Shown: piece by piece, positions 13,426 through 32,580 of the stretch
Position numbering within the stretch: position 1 is the first letter of the stretch
Layout of the letters: every line of letters starts with the position of its first letter
Source of the DNA: a virus
IMG/VR virus record: IMGVR_UViG_3300028920_001037
Span: 1-64,000 of that record
Reading direction: 5' to 3' (one strand)
Length of the DNA: 64,000 bases
Made by a program: the position numbers and the translations under genes
Notes under the pieces: model-generated
The model's database searches: none
Seen by the model: only the letters and a program-made list of their open reading frames with translations
What the model was told of the DNA's origin: nothing

Positions 13426-13599
13426 TTATCTCCTAAAATATTTTCTATGTTCTTCTGGCACAAGTACATGAGAAATAGGTTTAACTATTTCCCCTGCTTC
13501 AGTTACTGGTATAGCAACTAATCTTTTAATATTATTAACAATTAAAAGTGTATATAGTTTATCATCCCTAGTATCTTTATATACTTTATATCTTTTCAT
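13426..13599 (-). CDS. Hypothetical protein (probable start MKRYK)
   Basis: Immediately downstream of the promoter at 13606-13634. Confidence 0.45.
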   Translation of the reverse strand: MKRYKVYKDTRDDKLYTLLIVNNIKRLVAIPVTEAGEIVKPISHVLVPEEHRKYFRR

Positions 13600-13605
13600 A
13601 TATAT

Positions 13606-13634
13606 AATATAATACATTATTATTTAAAAGTCAA
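13606..13634 (-). promoter_or_regulatory. Sigma70-like early promoter
   Basis: TTGACT-N17-TATATT. Confidence 0.75.
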
Positions 13635-13643
13635 GTTAAAAAT

Positions 13644-13651
13644 TATAAATA
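13644..13651 (+). promoter_or_regulatory. Late promoter TATAAATA for the endonuclease gene
   Basis: Exact octamer immediately before the structured leader. Confidence 0.7.
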
Positions 13652-13658
13652 TATTAAA

Positions 13659-13740
13659 GTAGGGAGACAGATGGTTGCAACCATTTTCTTTGCCTGAACA
13701 AAGATTATCTCTACATTAACTTCAATCACCTTTCAGGAGG
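13659..13740 (+). ncRNA. Endonuclease-leader RNA motif, copy A (three-way junction + SD-sequestering pseudoknot)
   Basis: GTAGGGA/TCTCTAC, GACAG, ATGGT-TGCA-ACCAT, TTT, CTTTG-[CCTGAA]-CAAAG, ATTA; loop pairs with TTCAGG at 13732-13737 overlapping AGGAGG. Confidence 0.7.
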
Positions 13741-13744
13741 TATT

Positions 13745-14650
13745 ATGTTTTCAACAGCGGATTTTATTAAAAGAGCTAAACTTATTCATGGTAATAAATA
13801 TGATTATTCTAAAACTAATCATATCAATTCAAAAACTAAACTTTGTATTATTTGTCCAAAACATAAAGAATTTTGGACTCTTCCACATAATCATTTAAAA
13901 GGTCAGGGTTGTCCAAATTGTTACAATGAAATTCGAGGAATCAAATCGAAAATATCTAAAAAATTTTTTATTGATTCTTGTAATAAAATTCATAATAACA
14001 AATATAAATATGATATAAATACTTTCAATGGAATGACTAGCCGTATTAAAATTAAATGCCCTATTCATGGTTTATTTTTTAAAATTGCATATGCTCATTT
14101 AACTTCTAAACAGGGTTGCCAAAAATGCTCTTATGAAAGCCAACTAAAACCTTTAAGCAGTTTTATAACCGAATCTAATAAAATTCATAATAATAAATAT
14201 AAATATAACAATTTTATTTATTTAGGAGCATTTAAAAAAAGTTATATAACATGTTATATACATGGCGATTTTTTACAAGATCCGCATTCACATTTAAAAG
14301 GCCATGGTTGCCCAAAATGTAATTCATCTAAAGGTGAATTAGTTGTTGAACAATATTTAAAAGAACATAATATTAAATTTAAACGTCAATATAAATTTAA
14401 AGATTGTAAAGATAAAAAACCTTTACCTTTTGATTTTTATTTGCCTAATTTTAATATATGTATCGAATATGATGGTGAACAACATTTTGGTAAATGGTTT
14501 ACAAAAATAAAAATAGATTTTAATATTATAAAATTACATGATAATATAAAAAACGAATATTGTAAAAATAATAATATTAAACTAATAAGAATACCTTATA
14601 CTAAAATAAATAAAATTAATACTATATTATCTAATATAATGAACTATTAA
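13745..14650 (+). CDS. Free-standing homing endonuclease (DUF723-like zinc repeats + Vsr-like PD-(D/E)XK domain)
   Basis: Three H.NKY.Y...C..H..F.....HL..GC.KC repeats, SKGE, PFDFYLP...IEYDGEQH, LIRIPY; opposite strand to its neighbours. Confidence 0.85.
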   Translation: MFSTADFIKRAKLIHGNKYDYSKTNHINSKTKLCIICPKHKEFWTLPHNHLKGQGCPNCYNEIRGIKSKISKKFFIDSCNKIHNNKYKYDINTFNGMTSRIKIKCPIHGLFFKIAYAHLTSKQGCQKCSYESQLKPLSSFITESNKIHNNKYKYNNFIYLGAFKKSYITCYIHGDFLQDPHSHLKGHGCPKCNSSKGELVVEQYLKEHNIKFKRQYKFKDCKDKKPLPFDFYLPNFNICIEYDGEQHFGKWFTKIKIDFNIIKLHDNIKNEYCKNNNIKLIRIPYTKINKINTILSNIMNY

Positions 14651-15107
14651 AAGCTTTATAAAATATATTAATAGCTTTTTGTTTTAACATATCATCAACA
14701 GTATCAAAATACCAACTTACCATATTACATATAAAAGGATGCTTTTTATATAGTTCATTATCGCTTATAAGAATAATAGGTTTCCTAAATTCATACGCAA
14801 AAGCTATTTCCATGATAGTTCCTAACATAGGTCTTTCAACACCAAAGTTTTCCATATAAGCTATAAACAAATCACATGTTTTAATAGCTATATAATCTTT
14901 ATCTAATATAGCTTTAGTTGGTACATTAGATGTTAATCCATCTGGTGATACATTATCTTCACCATTCAAAGGGTTTAAAAAACAAAGGTCACCATAATTT
15001 TTACCTGTATTTTTCCAGTTAGTATAATGTTTAATTACTTTATGGCGCCACTCTCTACATTTTTCAATATTTTTTCCATCGATTATACCCGCAAGATAAA
15101 CTTTCAT
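14631..15107 (-). CDS. Nucleoside 2-deoxyribosyltransferase-like protein
   Basis: VYLAG, NPL, D..AI..CD, GT.MEIAFA...KP. Confidence 0.8.
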   Translation of the reverse strand: MKVYLAGIIDGKNIEKCREWRHKVIKHYTNWKNTGKNYGDLCFLNPLNGEDNVSPDGLTSNVPTKAILDKDYIAIKTCDLFIAYMENFGVERPMLGTIMEIAFAYEFRKPIILISDNELYKKHPFICNMVSWYFDTVDDMLKQKAINIFYKAFNSSLY

Positions 15108-15109
15108 AA

Positions 15110-15634
15110 TTAAAACCTCCTTATATTAACATCGGCTCTTTCAATTGAAGCCTTTACTGTATCTTCTAATGTATTATGAATCTTTGGTATACTTACTTTA
15201 CCAAAACCTTTATCCAACCAAACAGCTTCCCACATAATATCTGAATAACTAATTCTATATGCATTATCAGGTCTACCATAAACAACCTTATATAGTTCTC
15301 TACCAATCCAATATCCCAGTTCCCAATTAGTTGTAAGTCCAATTAATTCTCTCGTTCTTGGAATCCAAAACAAAATACAATTGGCTCTTTTCAATCCATT
15401 AAACTCCCAAAGTGGAATCCAAGATTTGTTTTTATCTGATTCAGTTTTACTTACAAACTCGGGAACAACTAATGAACCGGTGAATCCTTGTCTTTCAAAC
15501 TCTTCAATAGCAGCGAATCTCCACGAAGTTAAATGGGTTTGGTTACCTCTAACAGTCGGCCCTGCCAAAAAAATAACCGGACCTTTTACATTTTTAACCT
15601 GTTCTTTTGATTGTTCATACCTGAATACATTCAT
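15110..15634 (-). CDS. Nucleoside 2-deoxyribosyltransferase-like (type 2) protein
   Basis: IFLAGP...SWR...PE...WE..GL..A..ILFW.PR...TTN.ELG. Confidence 0.8.
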   Translation of the reverse strand: MNVFRYEQSKEQVKNVKGPVIFLAGPTVRGNQTHLTSWRFAAIEEFERQGFTGSLVVPEFVSKTESDKNKSWIPLWEFNGLKRANCILFWIPRTRELIGLTTNWELGYWIGRELYKVVYGRPDNAYRISYSDIMWEAVWLDKGFGKVSIPKIHNTLEDTVKASIERADVNIRRF

Positions 15635-16743
15635 TATAACCTCACTCTTGTTTTACTTTCTTCCCAACCCTGATTAGTTATTTCAACAAATTTTACTTTC
15701 TTTCTAAACTCTTCCCAGTTTCTACAACCAGCATAATATGAAACAGCAGATTGTAAATTGCCAATAATGTTATTAACAATTTCTTTTGTTTCACCTGTAT
15801 ATGGGATTTGACCTGATTCACCTTCAATTGAAATCGCAGTCTTTTCACTTTTAAGTTTACTTGAAGCTTCCTTACTTGCCATTCCACTATATGAAACCCA
15901 TCTAATTTCTTTTGGATTCTCTGTTAAATCACCAGCTTCATCTAACTTATCTCCGTTAGAAAGACTAGTTGAGGCCAGCATCTTTCCCAACATACACATA
16001 TCTGCACCGGCAGCTATTGCTTTGCATATATCTCCCGGTGTTTCTATTCCACCATCGGCAATTAGATATGCTGTATCTTTAACTTTTGCACAATCAAAAA
16101 CAGAAGTCAATGTAGGTAATCCAAAACCAGTATTAGTTCTTGTTGTACAAATACTGCCACCACCAATACCAACTCTTATAAAGTTAGCACCAGCATCCTG
16201 TAGTCTTGCATATCCACTCCTTGTAGCAACATTTCCGGCCATGATATTTGTTGTTACCCAATTTGGACTGTTTTTTGAAATAAACTTAATAGTTTCAATG
16301 CTTGCTTTGGTATCTCCATTTGCAACATCAACAACAAATCCAAAATTATATCTATTGGCATTTTTATATTCTAATAATCTTTCAATCCATTTTCTCCATT
16401 TAGCAACTATTCCAACAGCCAAAAAAACTGTAGGTTGTTGTTCTTCTTTAAATTCACAATCTTCATAGAATTGGATTTGTTCATTAACATTTGCAAAACA
16501 TCTATCAATAGTTACTGGTAAATTAAATTCATGTGATAGACATTTAATCATTTTAACACTACAAACTTTATCCATTGGTGAATTAATAATTGGCGCCTTT
16601 ACTATAAAAGATTCACAGTTAGCTGGTAAGAAATCAGAACCATATTTATAGCTTATATCAGCATCCGTTAGATGATCTAAATTAGAATTTCTAGGAACCA
16701 ACAACACATCATTGTACGACAATACTCTACGAATGTCATTCAT
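15634..16743 (-). CDS. IMP dehydrogenase / GMP reductase family protein (no CBS domains)
   Basis: YNDVLLVP, SPMD, DVANG, AGNVAT, VGIGGGSICTTR, IADGG, GMAS, EG. Confidence 0.9.
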   Translation of the reverse strand: MNDIRRVLSYNDVLLVPRNSNLDHLTDADISYKYGSDFLPANCESFIVKAPIINSPMDKVCSVKMIKCLSHEFNLPVTIDRCFANVNEQIQFYEDCEFKEEQQPTVFLAVGIVAKWRKWIERLLEYKNANRYNFGFVVDVANGDTKASIETIKFISKNSPNWVTTNIMAGNVATRSGYARLQDAGANFIRVGIGGGSICTTRTNTGFGLPTLTSVFDCAKVKDTAYLIADGGIETPGDICKAIAAGADMCMLGKMLASTSLSNGDKLDEAGDLTENPKEIRWVSYSGMASKEASSKLKSEKTAISIEGESGQIPYTGETKEIVNNIIGNLQSAVSYYAGCRNWEEFRKKVKFVEITNQGWEESKTRVRL

Positions 16744-16745
16744 TT

Positions 16746-16940
16746 TTAATACCCCAATTCTCTTTCCGATATAAGTGTACGTGCATCATCAAACATTACA
16801 GCTAAACTATCATAAACTTCATAATCTTCATCAGAACAATCGTTCATAATTTCATGAACTTCATTTCTTTTATTTAAAAGATAACTTTGAACTTCCTGTT
16901 TAATTTTTTCAGCGTTTGTCATACTTTTATTTAAATCCAT
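16746..16940 (-). CDS. Hypothetical protein (probable start 16940)
   Basis: AGGAG RBS before MDLNK. Confidence 0.5.
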   Translation of the reverse strand: MDLNKSMTNAEKIKQEVQSYLLNKRNEVHEIMNDCSDEDYEVYDSLAVMFDDARTLISERELGY

Positions 16941-17250
16941 GTTTAATAACTCCTTCACCATGACAACATTTACAAGTATCATATCCATCAATATCATATG
17001 ATGATAACACACAATCCGTTGATGTTATTATTATTGTACCTAATGTGCAGTCTGAATTTCCAACATTGATAATTTCAAGTTCGCACCAACATATCCCACA
17101 ACCTTTAAGTTTAAGTAAAACAGATTCATCTATAAAACTACCTTTACCAGATTTTATTGAGTGTGAATATAACTTCCTATATTGTTTTGGTTTTATATTA
17201 TTACCATAACATATAGACGATACTTTAAGGTGTTGGTTCATTTCATTCAT
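16927..17250 (-). CDS. Hypothetical Cys-containing protein
   Basis: C-terminal CKCCHGEG. Confidence 0.45.
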   Translation of the reverse strand: MNEMNQHLKVSSICYGNNIKPKQYRKLYSHSIKSGKGSFIDESVLLKLKGCGICWCELEIINVGNSDCTLGTIIITSTDCVLSSYDIDGYDTCKCCHGEGVIKHGFK

Positions 17251-17252
17251 AA

Positions 17253-17657
17253 CTAACCTTTCTCATATGGAAAAACCACCCATTTTGTATTCATCTTAGC
17301 ATAGAAGTCCGGTTCAATTGGACTATCTTTATGTTTAAAAATGGTAGCTAACTTACATTTAGTCTTATCAAAGTTAAGTGAATTAATTGTTTCACCTGTA
17401 TCACAAATGTCATCGACTATCAACATATTATTACATAACCTACAGTTAAGAATCTCTACAAATTCTATACCTAATTGATGTGATATGATAGTTGCTGGAA
17501 ATAAACCTCCACGGGGTATGCCATATACGCAATCAAACTTACTTTTAGATTGTTTGATTTTCTTTATCAATCTATTAATATAATATATATATTCGTCCCA
17601 GTCAAGTAAAAATTTACCTTTACCTCGACTTAGACTTCTTTGTCTGGCATTTTTCAT
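17253..17657 (-). CDS. Type I phosphoribosyltransferase (xanthine/guanine PRT-like)
   Basis: GIPRGG, LIVDDICDTGET PRPP-binding loop, WVVFPYE. Confidence 0.9.
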   Translation of the reverse strand: MKNARQRSLSRGKGKFLLDWDEYIYYINRLIKKIKQSKSKFDCVYGIPRGGLFPATIISHQLGIEFVEILNCRLCNNMLIVDDICDTGETINSLNFDKTKCKLATIFKHKDSPIEPDFYAKMNTKWVVFPYEKG

Positions 17658-18393
17658 TTTGAACCTTTAAATTCAATATTTCATCAAAACTATCAGACCA
17701 ATTCTTTTTACAATAATCAGTTGTTACAAACCATTTAAGCCATCTACGATTAATTTCAGAAGTTTCAACACGAATATATTTAGGATTACGTTCTAATGTA
17801 TGTCCAACAAAACCATCTTTGTTTTCGTATTTCTTTCCATTTTTAAACATAAAATATTTCTGATGATTATTATATTCTTTTTTGGTTAGAAAATCTTCAT
17901 CAGTCCATTCACCATAAGTCTTTAAAAACTTTTTGCCGATATTAATTAACAATTCTTCATAAGTTCTACCATTAGCATCAACACCGTGATACAATTGCCA
18001 TTCTCTTATGTCATGATATTTTGATAAGTCTTTACCATGAAAAACTACAAAAGACATTTCGCCCCAGTATTCAACATGGTCAAACTTCCATTTCTCACCA
18101 TAAATAACTTCATAAGGAACATCAGCATATATTAATGCAGAGAAATCCTTTTCACCTGATTCTTTTAGTTCCTTATCAAAGTATTTTTTATACTTAGCAT
18201 AATTCTTTTTATTATAAGGAATATGAATTCCATCCTTACCAGCCCAATGTGAATAACCATGTTTACAAACTTCTTGTAGACTATGCCACAATAATTGCTC
18301 AACTGTATAAACAAGTGAACATGAAGTTGCTGGGTGCTGATTAAGCTTCGACAATATGTTATTATATTTTTTACATATCTTTCTAGTAATCAT
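17620..18393 (-). CDS. Hypothetical protein
   Basis: 257-aa ORF within the operon. Confidence 0.6.
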   Translation of the reverse strand: MITRKICKKYNNILSKLNQHPATSCSLVYTVEQLLWHSLQEVCKHGYSHWAGKDGIHIPYNKKNYAKYKKYFDKELKESGEKDFSALIYADVPYEVIYGEKWKFDHVEYWGEMSFVVFHGKDLSKYHDIREWQLYHGVDANGRTYEELLINIGKKFLKTYGEWTDEDFLTKKEYNNHQKYFMFKNGKKYENKDGFVGHTLERNPKYIRVETSEINRRWLKWFVTTDYCKKNWSDSFDEILNLKVQNEKCQTKKSKSR

Positions 18394-18656
18394 ATTACAT
18401 CACCATTTTCCTTTATTTTTAGATCCTCATAATGTGCAAGTATTCTACGTTCAATTTCATTTGCACATTGTCTTAGTTCTCCAATGAAATTTTTATAGTT
18501 ATTATAACTTGGTTCAACAGTATCTTGACAGAATTTATATAGAACATAGTTAAGTTTACCATCAGGTTTGACACCAGTATGTATCATATTACGAACAACC
18601 ATATTCATTGTTGGTCTATCTTCTTTTTTAATATATGGCATATTAACTCCTTTCAA
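18390..18656 (-). CDS. DUF6899-like protein
   Basis: MPYIK..R...G.LNY...Y......IG.L.....E..RR....YED.KI.ENGDV. Confidence 0.7.
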   Translation of the reverse strand: MKGVNMPYIKKEDRPTMNMVVRNMIHTGVKPDGKLNYVLYKFCQDTVEPSYNNYKNFIGELRQCANEIERRILAHYEDLKIKENGDVI

Positions 18657-18660
18657 TTAT

Positions 18661-18689
18661 AATATAATATATTTCAATAGAAATGTCAA
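18661..18689 (-). promoter_or_regulatory. Sigma70-like early promoter
   Basis: TTGACA-N17-TATATT. Confidence 0.75.
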
Positions 18690-19243
18690 GTGATATGATT
18701 TGTTCTAGCAAAATATTTCATTATCAATAATGCTTTAGCACCAAATTTTTTATCTTTTTGTAATAGTAATTCTTTAACTTCTCCTTGATTCAATAAGAAT
18801 TGTTCTATGTCTTCTGAAGCTTCTAAATTATTTATAGACAATTCTCCATTTGCTTTTACAAAAGCTATAGCAATACTTTCATCTGTAATACCAGGAGAAT
18901 TAAAAACAAATGGAGTTACCTCATAAATTAACTCAAGGTCTAATCCAGTTTCTTCTTTTAGTTCTCTCCTAATACAATCTTCAACGGGCTCGTTTTCATC
19001 AATGAGTCCAGCAGGGAATCCCCATTCATAATCTTTAATGGAAACCCTAAACTCTTTTATGATACATATCTTATTATTATCAGTTTCAGATTCAACAATA
19101 GGAATAATCATAACTGCTTTAATATTATTGGGTCTACTAACCCAACTCCATTCTTTATGATTACCTTCATTATCTTCATATTGAGTTGAATGAAGCTGAA
19201 GATATTTAGATACATTTCTGCAATCGTCTTTCCAAATTTTCAT
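18686..19243 (-). CDS. Nudix hydrolase, ADP-ribose pyrophosphatase-like
   Basis: FPAGLID.NE......RRELKEETG Nudix box, SPG.TDE. Confidence 0.9.
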   Translation of the reverse strand: MKIWKDDCRNVSKYLQLHSTQYEDNEGNHKEWSWVSRPNNIKAVMIIPIVESETDNNKICIIKEFRVSIKDYEWGFPAGLIDENEPVEDCIRRELKEETGLDLELIYEVTPFVFNSPGITDESIAIAFVKANGELSINNLEASEDIEQFLLNQGEVKELLLQKDKKFGAKALLIMKYFARTNHIT

Positions 19244-19830
19244 CGGTATAATCCATTCTGTTTAATATATTTTATAACATTTTTATACATAATTTTTTGT
19301 TGTAAGTCATTATCATTGTTAGCAATAGCTTCTCTTGCTTGTGTGGATGAATAATCTTTTTTGTGTTTTTTAAATACAACAGTAGATGGATCCCATTTCA
19401 ATTCTTCATCATTATAACCTTCACGTTGAAAAACTATAAAAGGAACAGTCTTTAAAAGATCTTCCCACTTATACCATTTATCAATTTCAATTGCACAATC
19501 CATTCCAATAATTACATAAAAGTTTATATGCTTATAAGATTCCATTAAACTTCTTATTGTATTATAAAATTTACCATCAGACTTCTTTTGAATTTCATGT
19601 AAACAAACCAACATATTATCTTTATGTTTTATTGAACGATAAATCATTTCTATCCTATGAAAAGAATCAGTAGATATTTTTCCAAGGTTATGAGAGAAAC
19701 ATGGCATAAACCAAACTTGATCAACCAAATCATATGATAAAACTGTTTCTGCAACTTCAACATGACTCTTAGTACAAGGGTTAAAAGATCCACCAAAAAT
19801 ACCTACACGTATCTTTTGTTTATTCTTCAT
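19240..19830 (-). CDS. nadD: Nicotinate-nucleotide adenylyltransferase
   Basis: GIFGGSFNP.T..H, IIGMD, W..W, SST..R. Confidence 0.9.
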   Translation of the reverse strand: MKNKQKIRVGIFGGSFNPCTKSHVEVAETVLSYDLVDQVWFMPCFSHNLGKISTDSFHRIEMIYRSIKHKDNMLVCLHEIQKKSDGKFYNTIRSLMESYKHINFYVIIGMDCAIEIDKWYKWEDLLKTVPFIVFQREGYNDEELKWDPSTVVFKKHKKDYSSTQAREAIANNDNDLQQKIMYKNVIKYIKQNGLYR

Positions 19831-20713
19831 TGAAAATATCTTTCCTATTAATTACAATAGGCCAGTTTCTTTTAAAATGTGTTGCTTTATATCTTTTGAT
19901 AACTGGATGATTACTATATAGTTCTCTAAAATTAACAAAGCTTTCATAGTCTTCAAGTCTATTCTTATACTTCAACCAATCATCCCAAGTAAAACTATCT
20001 TGGTCTTTTGTTAACCAAGTTTTTAAAAGCAGATCAACTTCTTCATATGATTTTGCACCAAGTTGATCTAAATCTGAATTAGAAACACCAAGACCGTCTG
20101 TTGGATTTGCTTCAACACAAATTCCTAAAGATGTTATTTTGTCTTGATCTTTTAAACAACTATATTCATTAACAACAATCCATCTTGCAACTTCATATAC
20201 CTCTGTTTTCCAAAGCTGTTGAATCATTCCATAATCTCCAACATCACCACAAAGCGTCCAGAAACCTAAATAATATTCAGTTAAGTTATCAGTTGAAAGA
20301 ACTATTCCTTTTTTTACTTGTGCAAGATTATAAAGATAAATCATTCTTAATCTGGCTTTAATGTTACCTCTTCTTATCTTGTCGGCTTTAGAATCCCACT
20401 CGACACAATCATGTAAATCATCTGTCAATTGATAATAAGAATGTATAAGACTTTGATCTTCCAAGAAATCGTGACAAAAGGATTCTCCAACTAATTTTGC
20501 TCTTTCAATTTCGTCTTGTTTGTTTGACTCAATTGGAAGACTTCTACCAATAAGAGGAATATCCAATTCATCACAAACAGGTCTTGCTAATGCACAACAT
20601 AAAGCTGAATCAATTCCACCAGAAACTCCAATGACTAAAGATTTTATATCATATTTAATAATATAATCCTTTAATTCTTTTTGGATATTTTTAACAACCA
20701 GTTCACAATTCAT
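19820..20713 (-). CDS. nadE: NH3-dependent NAD+ synthetase
   Basis: GVSGGIDS, GNIKARLRM, TDN.TE...GFWT..GD, KTEVY, PTDGL. Confidence 0.95.
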   Translation of the reverse strand: MNCELVVKNIQKELKDYIIKYDIKSLVIGVSGGIDSALCCALARPVCDELDIPLIGRSLPIESNKQDEIERAKLVGESFCHDFLEDQSLIHSYYQLTDDLHDCVEWDSKADKIRRGNIKARLRMIYLYNLAQVKKGIVLSTDNLTEYYLGFWTLCGDVGDYGMIQQLWKTEVYEVARWIVVNEYSCLKDQDKITSLGICVEANPTDGLGVSNSDLDQLGAKSYEEVDLLLKTWLTKDQDSFTWDDWLKYKNRLEDYESFVNFRELYSNHPVIKRYKATHFKRNWPIVINRKDIFNEE

Positions 20714-20722
20714 ATTAATTTC

Positions 20723-20926
20723 TTACCAATCTTCTGAATGTGTTAAATCAAATTCTTCACCACAAGCACACTTAATAGTTTTAATACAACCAAGTCCTGT
20801 GGGTGTAAAACAATATGTAAATCTTCCACCAATTGCTCCCTGTTTCATTGGGTCTGCAAACGGGCAAGTTTTATTATGTTCTTCTTTCCAATCTTGCAGT
20901 TCTTTATTATCCATCCGAAATTGCAT
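20723..20926 (-). CDS. Hypothetical phage protein
   Basis: GAIGG..TY.FTPTGLG.....C.CG....LT motif. Confidence 0.65.
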   Translation of the reverse strand: MQFRMDNKELQDWKEEHNKTCPFADPMKQGAIGGRFTYCFTPTGLGCIKTIKCACGEEFDLTHSEDW

Positions 20927-20935
20927 ATTAGTTCC

Positions 20936-21247
20936 TTATGGCAATATGATTCCACTATCGGTTTTCTTTGCAGCTATTGGTGGTTGACCACCCTGAATAA
21001 CCTGAACTACTTGCTGTACATTATGATGAAGAACATTCATATTATTTGCAATGACATTAACCATCTGAGCTAATCCACCCATATCATTACCAATGAAATC
21101 AATTGCCTCAAGCAATTCACCTTTAGTAACAGTTTCATCGGGATTCTCACTAAGCTTCTTATGGAAAGCTTCATATGCTTTTTTATGTTCTTCCATTGCT
21201 TTTTTCATTTCTTCTTCAGTCATCTGTTTCTGTTCTTGTTTACTCAT
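20936..21247 (-). CDS. Hypothetical helical protein
   Basis: AGGAG RBS; coupled to the upstream gene. Confidence 0.6.
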   Translation of the reverse strand: MSKQEQKQMTEEEMKKAMEEHKKAYEAFHKKLSENPDETVTKGELLEAIDFIGNDMGGLAQMVNVIANNMNVLHHNVQQVVQVIQGGQPPIAAKKTDSGIILP

Positions 21248-21765
21248 AGTTTGCTCCTAACTAGATTAAAATTATCTGGTAATGTATTCATTTTATCTTT
21301 TACTTGTTCCCAAGAATATGGGTAAAAATTATTAGTATCTACTCCACAATCAAAACTTTTACCCCAAGGTTCTAACATTCCATGCGAGTGGCCATAAAGC
21401 GAAAAAGCATTATAATGAGATTTGTGCCATATCCTCATAGAACAATGAGATAAAGTTATATTTATTCCTTCTATTTTGGTATTTAATAATTGATTATATG
21501 AAGCAAATAAATGTTTACAGTTTTTAGTATTTTTATCATGAGAACCTAATATTAAATGAATATTGCCATTTAATCTTCTTAAATGTTTTTGAACGTCACC
21601 AAAAGCAAAATCACCTAAATGATATACTATATCATTTTTTCTGACTACAGAATTCCAATTTGTAATAATAACCTCATCGTGTTCTTCTATAGAACTAAAC
21701 GGTCTATTACAATATTTAATTATATTTCGGTGTGAAAAGTGCGTATCGGCTGTAAAATATATCAT
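21244..21765 (-). CDS. Calcineurin-like metallophosphoesterase (start reassigned to 21765)
   Basis: DTHF.H, LGDF, GSHD, SH, GHSH; ATGA overlap with the GIY-YIG gene stop. Confidence 0.9.
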   Translation of the reverse strand: MIYFTADTHFSHRNIIKYCNRPFSSIEEHDEVIITNWNSVVRKNDIVYHLGDFAFGDVQKHLRRLNGNIHLILGSHDKNTKNCKHLFASYNQLLNTKIEGINITLSHCSMRIWHKSHYNAFSLYGHSHGMLEPWGKSFDCGVDTNNFYPYSWEQVKDKMNTLPDNFNLVRSKL

Positions 21766-22379
21766 AATTGTTTTCTCAATTTCCACAGGCTAATATTTAA
21801 TTTTCTACTGGCTTCTCTTAGCGATCCATATTCTATACCGTTTATAACTATTTGTATTGATTTTGGGTGTTCTTTTCCGGGTTTAAATGACGTTTTTAAT
21901 TTTTTTCCATATAAATAATGTTCTTTTCCTCTATGATAATATCTATTAGCTATTTTCTTTTTTGAATCTTTTGAATGATGTTTTCCATAAAAGGGATTAT
22001 TTTTTCCTAAAATATTTGGTCTTGGCCCCTTTAAGTTTTCAATATGTTTTTTTGATTTTGGTTTCCCTAATAAAGCCATTTTAATTTTTTGTTTATGAGT
22101 TTCTGATAAACTATCAACTCCATAACTTCCCAATCTCAAATTATAACCAATATTTGGATTAATAGATTTTAATTTTTTAATCCAATAAATTTCTCTTTCA
22201 TCAACTCCAGATATACAATGTTCAAGTATCTCTCTTTTAAAATTTTCTTTACCATATTTTTTAATATCTTCATTCAATTTAGATCCAGAACCTAAATATC
22301 CATCATCTGCACTACTATAATGTTTACCTACATAAATCTTTCCATTAACTAGATTTGTTGTTTTGTAAATAATACTCAT
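21762..22379 (-). CDS. GIY-YIG homing endonuclease with NUMOD3-like repeats (Seg-like)
   Basis: IYKTTN.VNGKIYVGK, YLGSG, ERE..WI, GYN, NPFYGK.H. Confidence 0.9.
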   Translation of the reverse strand: MSIIYKTTNLVNGKIYVGKHYSSADDGYLGSGSKLNEDIKKYGKENFKREILEHCISGVDEREIYWIKKLKSINPNIGYNLRLGSYGVDSLSETHKQKIKMALLGKPKSKKHIENLKGPRPNILGKNNPFYGKHHSKDSKKKIANRYYHRGKEHYLYGKKLKTSFKPGKEHPKSIQIVINGIEYGSLREASRKLNISLWKLRKQL

Positions 22380-22468
22380 AAGATACCCCCGATTAAGGTT
22401 TAAGTTGGAGATACCGGATAATCCTAAATCGGATAGGAAAGGTGATCAAACCCTGTCTCCAAGTATCC
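22380..22468 (-). ncRNA. Endonuclease-leader RNA motif, copy B
   Basis: GGATAC(T)TGGA/TCCGGTATCT, GACAG, GGT-TTGATC-ACC, TTT, CCTA-[TCCGATT]-TAGG, ATTA; loop pairs with AATCGG overlapping the GGGGG SD; AATAAATA upstream at 22475-22482. Confidence 0.7.
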
Positions 22469-22485
22469 TATAAGTATTTATTATT

Positions 22486-22779
22486 TTAAACCAATCCGAA
22501 GTGAACCAATAATTCATCATCAATCTTTCTATCTGGATTTCTATCTTTAATTATTTTAAAACTGGAAAATTCTGCTTCTTTTAATTCATGTGTTATATAT
22601 TTATCACATATATGTAACAGTCGAGTACTAATTCTACCTGGTCGTGAATTATAAAGATCTGATGGACATACAAAAATTAATTCTTCATCGTTTTCACGAG
22701 CTTCTTCTCTTAATTTATATAAAGCTAAATCAAAATCTTTTACTAAAATATTTTTTAAATCATCCCAAGTGACTATCAT
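22486..22779 (-). CDS. Hypothetical protein
   Basis: ORF within the operon. Confidence 0.55.
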   Translation of the reverse strand: MIVTWDDLKNILVKDFDLALYKLREEARENDEELIFVCPSDLYNSRPGRISTRLLHICDKYITHELKEAEFSSFKIIKDRNPDRKIDDELLVHFGLV

Positions 22780-22780
22780 A

Positions 22781-23074
22781 TTAACGACAACGACATATAC
22801 TATAACATTTACTAGAAGTTTCCCAACCTAAATATCTACACCCATTACTATAAGTATGAATAAAAGCCGAGTCACCAATACCAACATCAACTAAAGTATA
22901 TAGTATAAAAAATCTCTTATCAGTCTTAATCTGCATTTTAACAGGCTCATTCCATGAAGTCGGAACAACACTAGCATCTTTTATTATTCCAACATATTCC
23001 TTATTAACCATTATGGGTTGTTCAGAACAACCAATCAAAAACAATGCTACAACTAACAATATCAATTTCTTCAT
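22781..23074 (-). CDS. Putative lipoprotein
   Basis: MKK + hydrophobic stretch + LIGC lipobox. Confidence 0.7.
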   Translation of the reverse strand: MKKLILLVVALFLIGCSEQPIMVNKEYVGIIKDASVVPTSWNEPVKMQIKTDKRFFILYTLVDVGIGDSAFIHTYSNGCRYLGWETSSKCYSICRCR

Positions 23075-23076
23075 AA

Positions 23077-23544
23077 TTACCTCAATCCATAGAAATAGAG
23101 TAAAGCCGCCCAGCCAGAGGGCAACATATTTGGAGCTTCTTTTAATTCTTTACCATATTTAATTGCCATTTCTAACATAAACTTTGCATGAAAGAAAGCT
23201 TCCAACAAAGGTCTTGTATTCTTTTCCCAATGTTTGCCATGAGAAAGATGCTTATGGTTGGTTCCGTTTTTAAATATTTCCATAAAGGTTTCATTAAACT
23301 TTGTATCTTTAGGAGCTAAAGATTTTAACACATCAACAATCTTAATAGTTAGGTTTTGAATGTAATAGACCTTAGCTGAATAATGATAAAACCTATAGAT
23401 ACTATCTTCATAATTCCAATGACTGTTAATATCATCCCATAAATTATCTAAATCAGATAATCTATTTTGGATATTAGTTAACAGTTCTTGATTGCGTTTG
23501 GCTAATTCTTCAAAGTAGTTATTGTTCATTATTAAAAAACACAT
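23077..23544 (-). CDS. Hypothetical protein
   Basis: ORF within the operon. Confidence 0.6.
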   Translation of the reverse strand: MCFLIMNNNYFEELAKRNQELLTNIQNRLSDLDNLWDDINSHWNYEDSIYRFYHYSAKVYYIQNLTIKIVDVLKSLAPKDTKFNETFMEIFKNGTNHKHLSHGKHWEKNTRPLLEAFFHAKFMLEMAIKYGKELKEAPNMLPSGWAALLYFYGLR

Positions 23545-24086
23545 TTAACAAAGTGGCAACCGGCATCTTTCATTTCTTGAATAGATGTTTCTGTATTTTT
23601 TTCATCAACACCAGCGATGGCATTCTCAAAAATATATACATCAATATTTCTTTTACGGAGTCCAAGTGCCGCGGCCTTAATACATACATCTGCGGCTACT
23701 CCTGCCAGCCATACTTCTGTAACCTTCTTATCTTTCAACCACTTATCAATATCTTTGTTGCCAAGTTTTCCATCGAATACATCATAAGTTTTCTTATCAA
23801 AGTAAACAGCCTTTTTAGTTTTAGTCTTAGCTTCTGGAATAAGTTCAGCGCCTGGCGTATCTGTGATACAATGAGGTGGAAATGTTTTAAATTCGGGGTC
23901 AGAACTATCATGTTGGTCTTGTGTAAAGAAAATATCACATTTGCGCTGTACTGCAAAACTAACAAGGTTCTTTATATTTTTCTTAATGCTTGTCGCATTA
24001 GGAACATATAAATTTCCATTTTCATTCATAAAGTCATTCTGCACGTCTATGAAACCAAACACTCTGTTCATACGAACCCCTTTCAA
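23532..24086 (-). CDS. pncA: Nicotinamidase (isochorismatase family)
   Basis: IDVQNDF...G.L.V, T.D.H, FPPHC, K, GVAADVCI catalytic Cys. Confidence 0.9.
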   Translation of the reverse strand: MKGVRMNRVFGFIDVQNDFMNENGNLYVPNATSIKKNIKNLVSFAVQRKCDIFFTQDQHDSSDPEFKTFPPHCITDTPGAELIPEAKTKTKKAVYFDKKTYDVFDGKLGNKDIDKWLKDKKVTEVWLAGVAADVCIKAAALGLRKRNIDVYIFENAIAGVDEKNTETSIQEMKDAGCHFVKCVF

Positions 24087-24106
24087 ATTGTTATATTTCT
24101 ATATAT

Positions 24107-24135
24107 AATATAATTCTTTTTAAACGAAAAGTCAA
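24107..24135 (-). promoter_or_regulatory. Sigma70-like early promoter (pncA ... nadE, nadD, Nudix operon)
   Basis: TTGACT-N17-TATATT. Confidence 0.75.
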
Positions 24136-24149
24136 GTCTTTTAGTTTAG

Positions 24150-24530
24150 TTATATTTTTAGATCATCAATTATCTTTTGTTGTTTTTCCATTTCAATTTC
24201 TGTTCTCTCTCTAGCCTGTTCGTTTCTCATATTTTCATATCTTGTTTCTAATTCTTGTAGCTTTGCTGTAGCTATTGCCATTTTAAAGATATTAGCTAAG
24301 ATAGCCATCGATTCTTTCTGCTTAACATTTTGTAGTAAATATAATAACATATCAAAAAACTTTACATATGTTAGTCTTTTACTTTTAAGCGATACAATTA
24401 TATTTGCAACTATTCTTTTTTGAACCGTTGCAAACCTTAAATTAACCTCAAGTTTCAAAAGATATTCTAAGAAGTCTTTTATATGTTCTTCTTTTGGTTT
24501 TAATGTTCTTGATACTCTTGGTATTTGCAT
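24150..24530 (-). CDS. Hypothetical helical protein
   Basis: ORF follows the ligase C-terminal half. Confidence 0.55.
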   Translation of the reverse strand: MQIPRVSRTLKPKEEHIKDFLEYLLKLEVNLRFATVQKRIVANIIVSLKSKRLTYVKFFDMLLYLLQNVKQKESMAILANIFKMAIATAKLQELETRYENMRNEQARERTEIEMEKQQKIIDDLKI

Positions 24531-24533
24531 TTA

Positions 24534-25373
24534 TTACATTCCTATCATTTTAAAGAAATCTTCCTCACTAATGATTCTAATTCCTAGTTGATTTGCTTTC
24601 TTAGTCTTTGAAGATGTTGAACTAGGATCTGCTTGAATTAATCCAGATACACCCTTCTTAACCGTCTTTTCACAAGAACCACCGTTCTCATAAACCAATT
24701 CCTGCAACATGTTTCTTGTGTACCTGTTTCCGTTTTCATCGATTCTCTGAACTGCACCAGTAAATACAAAAACTTCTCCATCCAATTGACTTGAACTCAC
24801 TTCAACCTCCTTAGGTTTTTCAACACCTTTTATTGTGATAACTTCCAATAATTTTTTAATTGTAGTTTTCTTTTTGGACAATCCATAAACAATTTCTTCT
24901 GCAACTCTATCACCAATTCCTTTAATACGGACAAGTTCTTCCTCACCTATATTTAACATTTTATCCAGAGTATCAATTCCATTTTCAATCAATAATTCTG
25001 CTCTAGACTTTGAAAAATTAGGAATGTTTAATCCATCAATGAAGGTTGCTAAATCTATTTCTTTCTTGTCATTAAAGTTCTTAATAATCTTCTTAGCTGA
25101 CTTAGTTCCCATGCCCTGAAGATTTGCTATTCTGTTTTCATCAAGTCGATAGAAATCTGAAGGGTCATAGACTATTTCAGCATTTTCAAACAATTCAATA
25201 GTCTTTATACTTATTGCATCAATGTCAAGTGCATCAACCCATTTCTGAAGATTGCCTATCCTTAATCCTTTACATTCAGTATTTTCACACATTAAATAAG
25301 TTCCGTCGTTATTTAATTCTTCATTACACATTGGACACCATAAAGGCGGTTTGAAATATTTTTTATTCTCCAT
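24534..25373 (-). CDS. ligA: NAD-dependent DNA ligase, C-terminal half (Zn finger, HhH, BRCT)
   Basis: PP.WCP.C...C....C, HhH GMG.KSA and KGIG, BRCT FVFTG...SSK..KA..LGI.II.E. Confidence 0.85.
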   Translation of the reverse strand: MENKKYFKPPLWCPMCNEELNNDGTYLMCENTECKGLRIGNLQKWVDALDIDAISIKTIELFENAEIVYDPSDFYRLDENRIANLQGMGTKSAKKIIKNFNDKKEIDLATFIDGLNIPNFSKSRAELLIENGIDTLDKMLNIGEEELVRIKGIGDRVAEEIVYGLSKKKTTIKKLLEVITIKGVEKPKEVEVSSSQLDGEVFVFTGAVQRIDENGNRYTRNMLQELVYENGGSCEKTVKKGVSGLIQADPSSTSSKTKKANQLGIRIISEEDFFKMIGM

Positions 25374-25390
25374 AAACTATTCCCTTCTTT

Positions 25391-25522
25391 TCAAATATAA
25401 TTTAAACTCTTTTTCTGTTTTTCCTTTTTTACTAAACTAATTTTATGTTTTTTAAGATGCGCGTTAATTATTTGTTTAAATTTTTGACCACAAATTTTAC
25501 ATCTAACAAAATTTTGATTCAT
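25391..25522 (-). pseudogene. Internally deleted homing-endonuclease remnant
   Basis: MNQNFVRCKICGQKFKQIINAHLKKH C2H2-like finger then a stop after 43 aa; carries the same leader RNA as the intact endonucleases. Confidence 0.6.
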
Positions 25523-25611
25523 AAAACCTCCACATTAGGTTAATAGCAGGAAGCATAAAGTAATCCTTATGTGGAAAGGAAACGGAATGATCGCTAGTCC
25601 TTTATACTCCC
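25523..25611 (-). ncRNA. Endonuclease-leader RNA motif, copy C
   Basis: GGGAGTATAAAG/CTTTATGCTTCC, GACTAG, short P2, TTT, CCTT-[TCCACAT]-AAGG, ATTA; loop pairs with ATGTGGA overlapping GGAGG; TATAAATA at 25615-25622. Confidence 0.7.
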
Positions 25612-25625
25612 TATTATTTATAATT

Positions 25626-26753
25626 TTACTCAATAATTTTTTCAATTTGTGGTATAACATCTCCACGTCTAGAAATTAAAACTTTTGCATTTTTATAAGG
25701 TTTAAGTTCATTAAAAACTTTTAAATTATGTAATGATGCTTTTGTTACTACTACACCACCAACTTTAACGGGTTTAAGTATAGCAACTGGTGTAATTCTA
25801 CCACTAGATCCAGTCTGCCATTCTATATTTTCTAAAATAGTTTCAGCCTTCATTGCACCGAATTTCCAGGCTATATGTGCCTTTGGATTTCCATTAAGTT
25901 CACCCAAAATTTTTTGTAATTTAACATTATTGCATTTTACTACGAGACCATCTATATCATATTTAGTTTGTGCCCTTAAATGGTCTTCATAATCATTATA
26001 AACATTAACAGCATCATTAACTGTTACTTTTTTATAATAACATGTTTTAATATTATTATCTTTTAACCATTGTAGTTTTTGTTCTTCAGTTTCCCAATCA
26101 CCTGTAATATCATAATACAATACTGTAAGGTATTCTGAATTAGTTCCATCATATCGTTTTGATATACCACTAGCTGCATTTCTTGGATTCTTCATTTCTT
26201 TTTCACATCGTTCCATCAAAATGAAGTTTAGTTTCTCAAAATCAGAAACAAGCATTATAATTTCTCCACGAAGGGAACCTGTAAAATTTTTAATGTTACC
26301 CAACACATTCTTCATTTTCCTAACATTGTTGAGTATATTTTCACCTTCAATTCCATCTCCACGGGTAATTGCCTTAACTAATTTGCCGTTTTCATACTCA
26401 AGGTCAACGCTAATTCCATCCAATTTATCCATGATTATATAGTGCGAATCTCCGATGGTATCAGACCATTTGATAAATTCTTCTTGCGTATTTACCTTAT
26501 TTAGGGAACACATGGGGATTTTATGGGTAGCCTTCTCCCATTCTGTGACACCAACTTTAGCTCCGATGCGATTAACGAAATCATCTGTGGGAAATCTTTC
26601 AGCATATATTTTAGTAGCTTCGTCAAACTCTTGGTCTGACATGGTTGGTTCTGATTTGTTATAATAGTGGTCGCTAGCTTCAAGTAGCATTTTTTTGAGG
26701 TCTTCTTGTTTCATATGTCTAAACACATCATATAAATTTATTACCGACATCAT
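25626..26753 (-). CDS. ligA: NAD-dependent DNA ligase, N-terminal half (Ia, adenylation and OB domains)
   Basis: YY.....MSD.EFD, PM.SL, KLDG, TRGDG..GE, RGE, NPRN.ASG, DGLVVK, AWKF, GRITPVA, ASLHN, RGDVIP. Confidence 0.9.
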   Translation of the reverse strand: MMSVINLYDVFRHMKQEDLKKMLLEASDHYYNKSEPTMSDQEFDEATKIYAERFPTDDFVNRIGAKVGVTEWEKATHKIPMCSLNKVNTQEEFIKWSDTIGDSHYIIMDKLDGISVDLEYENGKLVKAITRGDGIEGENILNNVRKMKNVLGNIKNFTGSLRGEIIMLVSDFEKLNFILMERCEKEMKNPRNAASGISKRYDGTNSEYLTVLYYDITGDWETEEQKLQWLKDNNIKTCYYKKVTVNDAVNVYNDYEDHLRAQTKYDIDGLVVKCNNVKLQKILGELNGNPKAHIAWKFGAMKAETILENIEWQTGSSGRITPVAILKPVKVGGVVVTKASLHNLKVFNELKPYKNAKVLISRRGDVIPQIEKIIE

Positions 26754-30836: not shown

Positions 30837-31132
30837 TTTGTAAATTTTCCTTTTAATTTTTTAGCTTCTTCTAGTGCTATTTTATATTCTTCATTTGTTG
30901 GAAACCTTTCGGTTAATCTTTTAATAGCATTTACAATCATCTTTTTATTTTCTTCATCTAGAAAACCACGACCAATCATAGTATAATAAAAACCATTTAA
31001 GATTTCATCAGAAGATAAATTACTATTATTAACTTCATCTAATTCTTTATCGGTTGGATCTCTGTATATAGTTTCATTAAATATACTAGGTTTGCTATTA
31101 ATGTTTTCTTTTAAATATTGTTTAAAGCTCAT
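30833..31132 (-). CDS. Protein with capsid-targeting-like N-terminus (start MSFKQ)
   Basis: MSFKQYLKE; ATGA overlap with the cca stop. Confidence 0.6.
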   Translation of the reverse strand: MSFKQYLKENINSKPSIFNETIYRDPTDKELDEVNNSNLSSDEILNGFYYTMIGRGFLDEENKKMIVNAIKRLTERFPTNEEYKIALEEAKKLKGKFTK

Positions 31133-32580
31133 GATTCTTTCCAATCCTTAACTAGTTGTTCTATAGTTTCCATATCGTCTAATGGTATTTCATTATCCAT
31201 AACATAATCAGTTACGTCTTTAATAATGTCGCCCATTTTCGGTCCTGGTTTTATATCCGGGCGGATCCGCATAATCAATTTACCATTGATAACTTTTCTA
31301 ACAGCATCAACTGCGTCTTTACCTTTTGACCATTCTTTAATCTTATTTATCTTTTCTTGTATTTCATTCCACTCTTTCTGGTCATATAAACTTCCTCTTG
31401 CTTTAGTATCTGCCAATGCAACTTGTTGTAACACATCAAAATATGGAGATTTCAATAATTGTGCAATGGTCGAGTTACTCATCTTTGGAATATTAAAATA
31501 GTTCATATGATTACTAGCCGCAAAAATTAAAGCGTCTTTCATCTTATTTTGTAGTTTAAGTCTGTCTGCAATTTTTTCCAATATGCGTTTTGACTCTCCT
31601 TCATGACCATGATATGTATGAGTTCCTTTTTCTGTATCAAACTTATATGTTTCTGGTTTACCAACATCATGTAAAAGTATAGCCATATTAACTGTTGGGT
31701 CATTTCCTTTGTAAGTTCTAAGAGCTGCAATTGTGTGTTGAATGACGTTGCCTTCTGGATGGTGAGCAGGTGTATGCTGAAACCCTTCCATAACATCAAT
31801 CTCTGGAAGAATGTATTGTAATAGTCCAACATCTTTCATCATTAAGATGGCATCAGCAAATTTAGTTCCCGGTTCTTTAGCCATCTTTAAAACTTCTTTC
31901 ATTATTCTTTCGGCGGCTTGACCCTTAATTTTATCAGACTGTGATTGAATTGCTTTAAAAGTTTCTGGCTCTACATTAAATCCCATACGAGAGGCAAAAC
32001 GAATTGCTCTAAGCATTCTAATATAATCTTCTGTAAATCTTTCTTCTGGATTACCAACAGTTCTAAGAACTTTATCTTTAATATCTTTCTTACCATCAAA
32101 ATAGTCTAGAATATTTCCATCTCTATCTATTGCCATTGCATTAATTGTAAAATCTCTACGAGCAGCGTCATCTTTAAAGTCTGGAACTATTGTTACTTTA
32201 TCCGGATGTCTGCCATCAGTATACGTTCCATCTGAACGAAAATTAGAAATTTCAAAATTATAACCTTTATATTCTACAACCACAATACCAAATTCTTTAT
32301 TTCTTCCGATGTCATGTGATGGAAATAATCTATCGACAGTTTCCATAGGAACATTGGTTGCTATATCAACATCATCGAAATCTTTTCCTAATATAATATC
32401 TCTGACTGCACCACCAACGATATAGTTCTTTGAATCTGGTTTAGCTTTCTTTAGTTTATCTAATATTTCAACACCTGCTTTAAGTGGTGGAGTTTTTTCA
32501 ACGTATTCTTCCCAGTCACCAAAGCGATCTTCGTCTTCAATATAGCCTTCTTTAAAAATATAAAATTCTTTAAATCTCAT
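31129..32580 (-). CDS. cca: Class II CCA-adding tRNA nucleotidyltransferase with HD domain
   Basis: VGGAVRD, DVDIAT, RRDFTINA, ED..RMLRA.RF, LLHDVGK; extra N-terminal MRFKEFYIFKE. Confidence 0.9.
   Translation of the reverse strand: MRFKEFYIFKEGYIEDEDRFGDWEEYVEKTPPLKAGVEILDKLKKAKPDSKNYIVGGAVRDIILGKDFDDVDIATNVPMETVDRLFPSHDIGRNKEFGIVVVEYKGYNFEISNFRSDGTYTDGRHPDKVTIVPDFKDDAARRDFTINAMAIDRDGNILDYFDGKKDIKDKVLRTVGNPEERFTEDYIRMLRAIRFASRMGFNVEPETFKAIQSQSDKIKGQAAERIMKEVLKMAKEPGTKFADAILMMKDVGLLQYILPEIDVMEGFQHTPAHHPEGNVIQHTIAALRTYKGNDPTVNMAILLHDVGKPETYKFDTEKGTHTYHGHEGESKRILEKIADRLKLQNKMKDALIFAASNHMNYFNIPKMSNSTIAQLLKSPYFDVLQQVALADTKARGSLYDQKEWNEIQEKINKIKEWSKGKDAVDAVRKVINGKLIMRIRPDIKPGPKMGDIIKDVTDYVMDNEIPLDDMETIEQLVKDWKES

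Follow-up and report, generated by a model that had tools for sequence, protein, structure and literature searches.

A structured RNA leader lies in front of three genes on a stretch of viral DNA of 64,000 nucleotides (nt), namely positions 1 to 64,000 of the IMG/VR record IMGVR_UViG_3300028920_001037 (hereafter the window), and at least 47 distinct relatives of it were collected from viral and metagenome contigs. The leader consists of a three-way junction (helices P1, P2 and P3), a short hairpin (P4) and a helix formed between the loops of P3 and P4 (L3:L4), and all five helices are shown by covariation. Its exclusive partners are genes of the homing-endonuclease type, and the spacing from promoter to junction is constant. 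Because the Shine-Dalgarno sequence and the start codon sit at a fixed place in the covarying helices, we consider it probable that the element is a cis-acting translational lock within a self-contained cassette of promoter, leader and nuclease gene. The record that holds the window is a linear virus of 75,062 base pairs (bp) with 30% G+C and an estimated completeness of 29%, and the public sequencing runs that contain it are marine sediment metagenomes. A first-pass annotation, made from the letters of the window, had reported the leader as common to three genes; this observation was confirmed, and the interpretation placed upon it was partly supported.

The three copies, located by inspection of the sequence, occupy positions 13659-13741 on the plus strand (c1), 22462-22385 on the minus strand (c2) and 25611-25526 on the minus strand (c3), each upstream of a nuclease-type gene (a remnant in c3) and each with the layout previously described; in a descriptor scan of the whole 75-kilobase (kb) record, only these three had the full set of helices. 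The order of parts common to them is a box of the TATAAATA type, P1, the trinucleotide GAC (GACU in c3), P2, one U, P3, the tetranucleotide AUUA and the 3' strand of P1, after which comes a linker without G and then an exact complement of the P3 loop that runs into the Shine-Dalgarno sequence. The first pair of P2 is always A-U, and the second is an invariant G.U.

The loop pairings originally proposed (CCTGAA/TTCAGG, CCGATT/AATCGG and (T)CCACAT/ATGTGG(A)) and the P3 stems (CTTTG/CAAAG, CCTA/TAGG and CCTT/AAGG) were correct, while two parts of the proposed fold had to be redrawn. Of the junction, GAC and a single U stand as such, whereas the 'AG' and two of the residues in 'TTT' form the first two pairs of P2. 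Similarly, the complement downstream of the P3 loop is real, but its supposed pseudoknot with a free strand is in fact a loop-loop kiss, since the partner is the loop of P4, an overlooked hairpin of 3-5 bp, the stem of which contains the AGG of the Shine-Dalgarno sequence.

In the following list of features, R2 denotes a covariance model trained on 17 relatives plus c1, without c2 and c3; the two held-out copies were detected with E-values of 2e-9 (c2) and 2e-5 (c3).

Copy c1
13644-13651, plus strand: late-promoter-type box TATAAATA, from sequence; putatively active, with a predicted start at about 13657, 2 nt before P1
13659-13714, plus strand: three-way junction, from minimum-energy fold, covariation and R2 (62.7 bits, c1 being in the training set); P1 13659-65 with 13708-14, GAC 13666-68, P2 13669-86, U 13687, P3 13688-92 with 13699-703, loop L3 CCTGAA 13693-98, AUUA 13704-07
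13715-13727, plus strand: G-free linker ATTAACTTCAATC, from sequence
13728-13741, plus strand: P4 hairpin; ACCT 13728-31, loop L4 TTCAGG 13732-37 (partner of L3), AGGT 13738-41
13736-13740, plus strand: Shine-Dalgarno sequence GGAGG, overlapping L4 and the 3' strand of P4

Copy c2
22475-22482, minus strand: box AATAAATA (7 of 8 positions matching TATAAATA), from sequence and family statistics; predicted late start at about 22469
22463-22478, minus strand: 5' arm of an outer helix (P0), AATACTTATAGGATAC, covering the final 4 nt of the box and 12 nt beyond it
22414-22462, minus strand: three-way junction (R2 44 bits, c2 outside the training set); P1 22462-58 with 22418-14, GAC 22457-55, P2 22454-39, U 22438, P3 22437-34 with 22426-23, loop L3 TCCGATT 22433-27, AUUA 22422-19
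22385-22399, minus strand: P4 hairpin; ACCT 22399-96, loop L4 TAATCGG 22395-89, GGGT 22388-85; the AATCGG of L4 kisses the CCGATT of L3
22371-22386, minus strand: 3' arm of P0, GTATCTTATGAGTATT, made up of the spacer, the AUG (22379-77) and codons 2-4, with 2 nt in common with the 3' strand of P4

Copy c3
25615-25622, minus strand: box TATAAATA, 5 nt after the stop codon of the N-terminal half of a ligase gene; predicted start at about 25609
25549-25611, minus strand: three-way junction, from minimum-energy fold and R2 (30 bits, c3 outside the training set); P1 (12 bp) 25611-00 with 25560-49, GACU 25599-96, P2 25595-81, U 25580, P3 25579-76 with 25568-65, loop L3 TCCACAT 25575-69, AUUA 25564-61
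25526-25540, minus strand: P4 hairpin; ACCT 25540-37, loop L4 AATGTGG 25536-30, AGGT 25529-26; the ATGTGG of L4 kisses the CCACAT of L3

Covariation of the fold

Relatives were gathered by fixed patterns and on fetched loci. The first collection pattern gave two true leaders among the 118 loci listed. A specific DNA pattern matched 17 stretches of viral contigs; among metagenome contigs it matched 75, of which 38 have the full fold. The 12 matches in GTDB genome contigs, none with the fold, were attributable to chance. No real match came from BLAST of a cultured-phage collection, a method ill suited to structured RNA. A model built from a single sequence (R1) was too weak to recover c3 and the relative L069, and MAFFT alignments of the copies were out of register, for which reason model-guided alignments were used instead. 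For the full length of the leader, a model (R3) was built from c1 alone, 24 distinct relatives were aligned to it, and the long-range pairing was added by hand.

Covariation in a larger alignment had been set beforehand as a test of the proposed RNA class, and the alignment of the 24 relatives indeed revealed it. In the full fold, 94.6% of the pair cells were standard pairs, compared to 68.3% in shuffled alignments and 37-57% when the partners were slid, and 26 of the 29 pairs were altered on both sides; not one of 500 shuffles reached any of the observed measures. By helix, the paired cells amounted to 95% in P1, 96% in P2, 97% in P3, 90.8% in L3:L4 and 93% in P4. The alignment of the core gave a similar picture, with 95.6% of cells paired against 69.8% in shuffles, and with 13 of 16 pairs changing on both sides. 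The suggestion that a cis-acting, covarying RNA class precedes unrelated nuclease genes is thus supported by this larger set of relatives.

The long-range helix deserves separate mention, since the kiss was not encoded in the covariance model, and L3:L4 was therefore not fitted to it; five of its six pairs nonetheless change on both sides. The 47 distinct copies show 31 different L3 loops, and an exact downstream complement of 5-7 nt is found in all but one of the copies (46/47). When the loops were compared with their own targets, the complement reached 6 nt in 70% of the combinations, as opposed to 1.6% when loops and targets were mismatched. The consensus of the kiss is a P3 loop of CCNNNN with a P4 loop of NNNNGG. 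The P4 stem is usually ACCU/AGGU and covaries to UCCU/AGGA, GCCU/AGGC, CCA/UGG and CUC/GAG. G makes up 1.6% of the linkers across the family.

While the surrounding helices change, about 12 nucleotides of the junction, the G.U pair included, are invariant; the apex of P2, on the other hand, is in general neither palindromic nor conserved when compared across the family. It is to be noted that the G.U pairs, one of them invariant, can fold on the sense strand only, which points to RNA rather than DNA.

A putative translational lock and competing explanations

In the fold, the Shine-Dalgarno sequence is fully paired, with the GG of GGAGG taken up by the L3:L4 kiss and the AGG by the stem of P4. 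GGAGG is the 5-mer that straddles the kiss end in 35 of 46 copies, and the start codon follows the kiss by 7-9 nt in 43 of 46. The promoter side is similarly constrained: in 44 of the 47 distinct copies a NATAAATA box has its end 10-17 nt ahead of GAC, with modes of 12 and 17 nt, and in 47-kb phages that are not of the T4 type, TATGAT or TATAAT, which resembles the -10 box of sigma-70, occupies the same place instead of TATAAATA. In every copy with a box upstream, the part of the fold that pairs the Shine-Dalgarno sequence (P3 and P4) lies downstream of the box. In the window as a whole, TATAAATA is modestly over-represented (27 occurrences, 16.4 expected). The conserved position of the box across the family suggests that it functions as a promoter. 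T4 late promoters have their start point about 6 nt after the box, and by analogy the transcript would be expected to start at P1 or just within it.

A complementarity search revealed one addition to this architecture, namely the outer helix P0 of c2, in which 16 bp are formed between 22478-22463 and 22386-22371; the same search detected no outer helix above chance in c1 and c3, and apart from P0 the folds offered a single architecture. Within the family, P0 belongs to the c2 subtype, the GIY-YIG genes of which begin with MSI; it is 10-18 bp long and is kept in the relatives by matching insertions and deletions on both arms. For read-through RNA of c2, the predicted fold was -37.1 kcal/mol (z -3.9), with none of 200 shuffles as stable, whereas RNA that starts 6 nt after the box gave -25.0 kcal/mol (z -0.6), and in the modeled late-start RNA the AUG appears to be left unpaired. 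The statement that the late promoter precedes the entire structure is thus accurate for c1 and c3 and inaccurate for c2, in which P0 includes both the end of the box and the start codon. The contrast with T-even phages that had been drawn from it also fails for c2, because a late start would truncate P0, which is the T-even layout.

Taken together, these features suggest the following mechanism. With transcription starting at the adjacent late-type promoter, at the base of P1, the three-way junction would fold first, at the 5' end of the mRNA. The ribosome-binding region, as it emerges, would form P4, with the AGG of GGAGG in its stem, and the P3 loop would then capture the P4 loop of 6-7 nt in a kiss of 5-7 bp. 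The entire Shine-Dalgarno sequence would in this way be double-stranded 7-9 nt before the start codon, so that binding of the 30S subunit would be hindered and little nuclease made, on read-through transcripts and on the transcript of the cassette itself alike. In the c2 subtype, the additional outer helix of 10-18 bp would, on read-through transcripts only, link the start codon with the promoter region, and a late start would remove most of the 5' arm of P0, as in the classical T-even bypass. From the arrangement we infer that the fold lowers translation and that low expression is the selected effect.

Several points weigh against this reading. A plain lock needs only P3 and P4, which leaves P1, P2 and the conserved junction (GAC, the A-U and G.U pairs, U and AUUA) unexplained. 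The lock also stays on the late transcript of the cassette, so that the T-even discrimination between early and late transcripts would be absent except through P0 in the c2 subtype. P4 has merely 3-5 bp, which leaves the strength of repression in doubt, and none of the public runs listed as containing the record is an RNA run. Lastly, the collection patterns fixed GAGACAG, TTTC, CC and GATTATC for part of the family, and conservation at these places is partly imposed by the search; the same junction is kept in by-catch copies and in those found through protein similarity (L069, L071, L293b, L297, L302, L305a and most copies of the phage G004).

The unexplained junction leads directly to the strongest of the alternatives, that of a regulated lock, in which the junction is an aptamer or a protein operator and a metabolite, or a protein of the phage or the host, tightens or opens the kiss, for instance according to the stage of infection. 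Some 12 invariant nucleotides, G.U included, amid changing helices are what such a site would present, the apex of P2 is free to vary like a peripheral arm of an aptamer, and an opener may be needed if the late transcript is locked as well; moreover, in the SAM-II, preQ1-II and preQ1-III riboswitches a pseudoknot occludes the Shine-Dalgarno sequence. However, neither the folds nor a search for complements yielded a mutually exclusive helix, a second complement of L3 or a decoy site, and the linker, being free of G, cannot compete for the C-rich loop. The nucleases served are unrelated and the phages differ widely in size and G+C, which makes a common ligand or autoregulator hard to name, and no riboswitch of Rfam was matched even at E<=10. 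On balance we regard regulation of this kind as unlikely, albeit worth keeping in view. Equally doubtful is the more specific proposal that the invariant junction is a sensor, be it aptamer or operator, that opens or tightens the kiss, or, in a weaker form, a knot at the 5' end acting against 5'-dependent decay. If the sensor were real, homing endonucleases of unrelated kinds in large phages of marine and fresh waters would share one signal-responsive translational switch.

A protective function could also be primary, the junction and its long-range contact forming a cap at the 5' terminus that blocks decay from the 5' end (entry and scanning by RNase E, or decay by RNase J), as the exonuclease-resistant RNAs (xrRNAs) of flaviviruses do, with occlusion of the ribosome-binding site as a secondary consequence. 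The tight spacing of 10-17 nt from promoter to GAC, with the transcript start expected at the base of P1, would suit a cap, and class 1 xrRNAs have the same topology, that is, a three-way junction with the P3 loop paired to a downstream strand. We nevertheless consider it improbable: the partner strand is in all cases the Shine-Dalgarno region, and its distance to the start codon is fixed, which points to translation, there was no match to an xrRNA family of Rfam, and a ring-closing pseudoknot at the 5' end is not evident.

Less probable still is that the conserved junction belongs to a self-cleaving ribozyme or a site of RNase processing, by which read-through transcripts would be trimmed so as to yield a defined nuclease mRNA. 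Although phage genomes commonly contain small ribozymes, no match was obtained at E<=10 on stretches of about 130 nt to hammerhead, twister, twister-sister, pistol, hatchet or HDV-like ribozymes, the junction strands GAC, U and AUUA are unlike the hammerhead core, and a dedicated promoter, if correctly assigned, already sets the 5' end. Finally, that the leaders are repeated DNA devoid of RNA function, such as recombination scars of endonuclease cassettes, could appeal to their modular recombination and to the copies that persist beside decayed genes (c3, L309, L294 and L321), but it is contradicted by compensatory changes in five helices including a long-range one, and with the strand-specific G.U pairs and the fixed geometry to Shine-Dalgarno sequence and AUG it is hardly tenable.

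Nuclease cassettes and carrier phages

The genes behind the three leaders of the window are as follows (aa, amino acids; ORF, open reading frame).

13745-14650, plus strand: gene of c1, 301 aa, homing-endonuclease type, with a DUF4379 treble-clef, DUF723 and a weak PvuRts1I-like nuclease domain (phrog_559)
21762-22379, minus strand: gene of c2, a GIY-YIG homing endonuclease of 205 aa with NUMOD3
25391-25522, minus strand: gene of c3, a remnant ORF of 43 aa with a Cys/His-rich start and no nuclease domain left

Across the family, every intact downstream ORF is of the homing-endonuclease type, and at least four families are represented (GIY-YIG/NUMOD3, HNH, EndoVII-like and DUF723/DUF4379). Leaders also stand before shortened ORFs, namely those of 43 aa (c3), 15 aa (L309), 23 aa (L294) and 43 aa (L321), and at L311 and L319 the junction alone is retained. 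The leader is found at only 2 of 160 loci with homologues of the two intact nucleases of the window (L069 and L071); it does not, therefore, characterise those protein families. Its mobility as a module, which the first-pass annotation had suggested, is supported by the comparison of c2 with the relative L241b: at the DNA level their ORF starts share about 90% identity, and the proteins 49% over 148 aa, but their leaders belong to different subtypes, that of c2 resembling the leader of L241a instead. Leader and coding region thus recombine as separate modules.

The immediate surroundings of two copies in the window may be described here. The c1 gene is on the strand opposite to both its neighbours (13426-13617 and 14631-15107, both minus), its 3' end overlaps the latter by 20 nt, and three further TATAAATA boxes lie within it on the plus strand (14003, 14014 and 14198). 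The overlapped ORF (14631-15107, minus, 158 aa), which adjoins the c1 cassette, has a domain like that of nucleoside 2-deoxyribosyltransferase (Pfam PF05014, E 5e-7). The c3 cassette sits in an NAD-dependent DNA ligase gene (24534-26753, minus) that is split in two ORFs, one with the adenylation and OB domains (25626-26753) and the other with HhH and BRCT (24534-25373). The insert of 250 bp between the two halves comprises the late box, the intact leader and the 43-aa remnant ORF, and the C-terminal half has a ribosome-binding site of its own, AAGGGA, 17 nt after the stop codon of the remnant. A search for relatives of the ligase half found none.

Elsewhere in the window, an ORF of 473 aa (2503-3924, minus) matches phrog_1314 ('HNH endonuclease', E 3e-40), and neither the descriptor nor R2 detected a leader ahead of it; not all nuclease-like genes of this phage therefore carry the element. 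An ORF of 483 aa (31129-32580, minus) matches a phage family of tRNA nucleotidyltransferases of the CCA-adding type (phrog_2244, E 9e-79).

The phages that carry the leader span 47 to 264 kb. With R2, 14 copies were counted in G004 (IMGVR_UViG_3300017917_002466, a complete record of 253,664 bp with terminal repeats), one in G005 (complete, 264 kb) and one in G007 (complete, 47 kb). A capsid protein of the T4 gp23 type is encoded in G004 and G005 (E about 1e-87), and none was found in G007. In the latter and its relatives (L263, L301, L308, L340 and L343), the leader occurs in a G+C-rich version (57% G+C), with the loop CCGATA pairing to TATCGG and with CCA/UGG as P4, and this version serves HNH genes in the complete 47-kb phage, which has no T4-type capsid gene.

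Some copies depart from the common form. The one at L069 (1374-1500) has a P3 of 8 bp and a kiss partner, AGTCGG, that lies 17 nt before the start codon, and its TATAAAT box is found between the kiss partner and the AUG, with none upstream of P1. In G004, the locus L311 (25612-28666) contains a copy at 27166-27112 (minus) directly after the gp23-type capsid gene (28415-27387); its three-way junction remains, while P4, the kiss partner and the ORF are gone.

Comparison with known systems

In accordance with the initial impression that the leader belongs to no known family, Rfam 15 at gathering thresholds gave no match over the 64-kb window, and at E<=10 a stretch of 13.5 kb and each copy of about 130 nt gave chance-level hits only (snoRNA, CRISPR repeat, algC and IS128, at most 16 bits). 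A full-text search of the literature found no description of a kissing-loop or three-way-junction leader of homing endonucleases, and the main text of the IMG/VR survey (PMC10690425) discusses no such leader. The int-alpA RNA (RF02996, gathering threshold 35.8 bits) is likewise a small candidate RNA, one from mobile or phage-type DNA, but its model matched none of the three copies of the window and none of the 17 in G004, G007 and G001, even at E<=10, and it was absent from the hits when single copies were scanned at low thresholds.

The PeSL cassettes of T4-type phages consist of an early promoter and a simple, terminator-like stem-loop placed between variable genes (PMC2839356, PMC4122927). 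Like the present element, they are short modules of promoter and RNA structure that occur many times per genome and accompany the shuffling of genes. The present element differs in its late-type box (44 of 47 copies), its five-helix fold, its engagement of the ribosome-binding site and its nuclease genes; it does not conform to the PeSL pattern of an early promoter of the sigma-70 type with a terminator-like stem-loop.

Flavivirus xrRNAs also have a three-way junction, the P3 loop of which is paired with sequence downstream of P1. Here, by contrast, the downstream strand is the ribosome-binding site, and there is no match in sequence or model. In the SAM-II, preQ1-II and preQ1-III riboswitches, likewise, a loop of a 5' domain pairs over a long range with the Shine-Dalgarno sequence, and conserved junction nucleotides lie beside covarying helices. 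Theirs, however, is a ligand-stabilised H-type pseudoknot in the service of a metabolic pathway, whereas the present RNA forms a kiss with a hairpin loop, precedes selfish nucleases and has no match in Rfam.

The family is worth curating into Rfam, and the leader could serve to mark nuclease cassettes, decayed remnants included, in phage metagenomes. With 31 loop pairs, it would represent a natural, programmable loop-loop lock on translation that could be borrowed for synthetic control, and its invariant junction leaves room for a regulator that has not yet been looked for.

The nearest functional parallel is found in T-even phages. Homing endonucleases cut DNA and must for that reason be expressed sparingly, and in these phages they are controlled, as is well established, by hairpins that bury the ribosome-binding site (I-TevI, I-TevII, I-TevIII and segB, as well as mobE of Aeh1; PMC2988022). 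The likeness extends to the leader of a homing endonuclease, the buried Shine-Dalgarno sequence and the TATAAATA late promoter directly upstream. In the c2 subtype, moreover, a long helix extends over the start codon and has the promoter in its 5' arm, so that a late start would cut it short. With the transcript start as presumed here, P0 fits the T-even bypass in the c2 subtype, and c1 and c3 do not. The T-even hairpins, however, are single and unrelated, a separate one for each gene, whereas here a homologous, multi-helix RNA of about 85 nt with an invariant junction is common to at least four nuclease families, and its lock would be retained on late transcripts. The module of promoter, junction and putative kissing-loop lock is compact and portable. 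Overall, the architecture of the RNA is new while its probable control logic matches that of the T-even homing endonucleases, and the element is a well-supported RNA family, new and widespread, and probably of a known functional kind.

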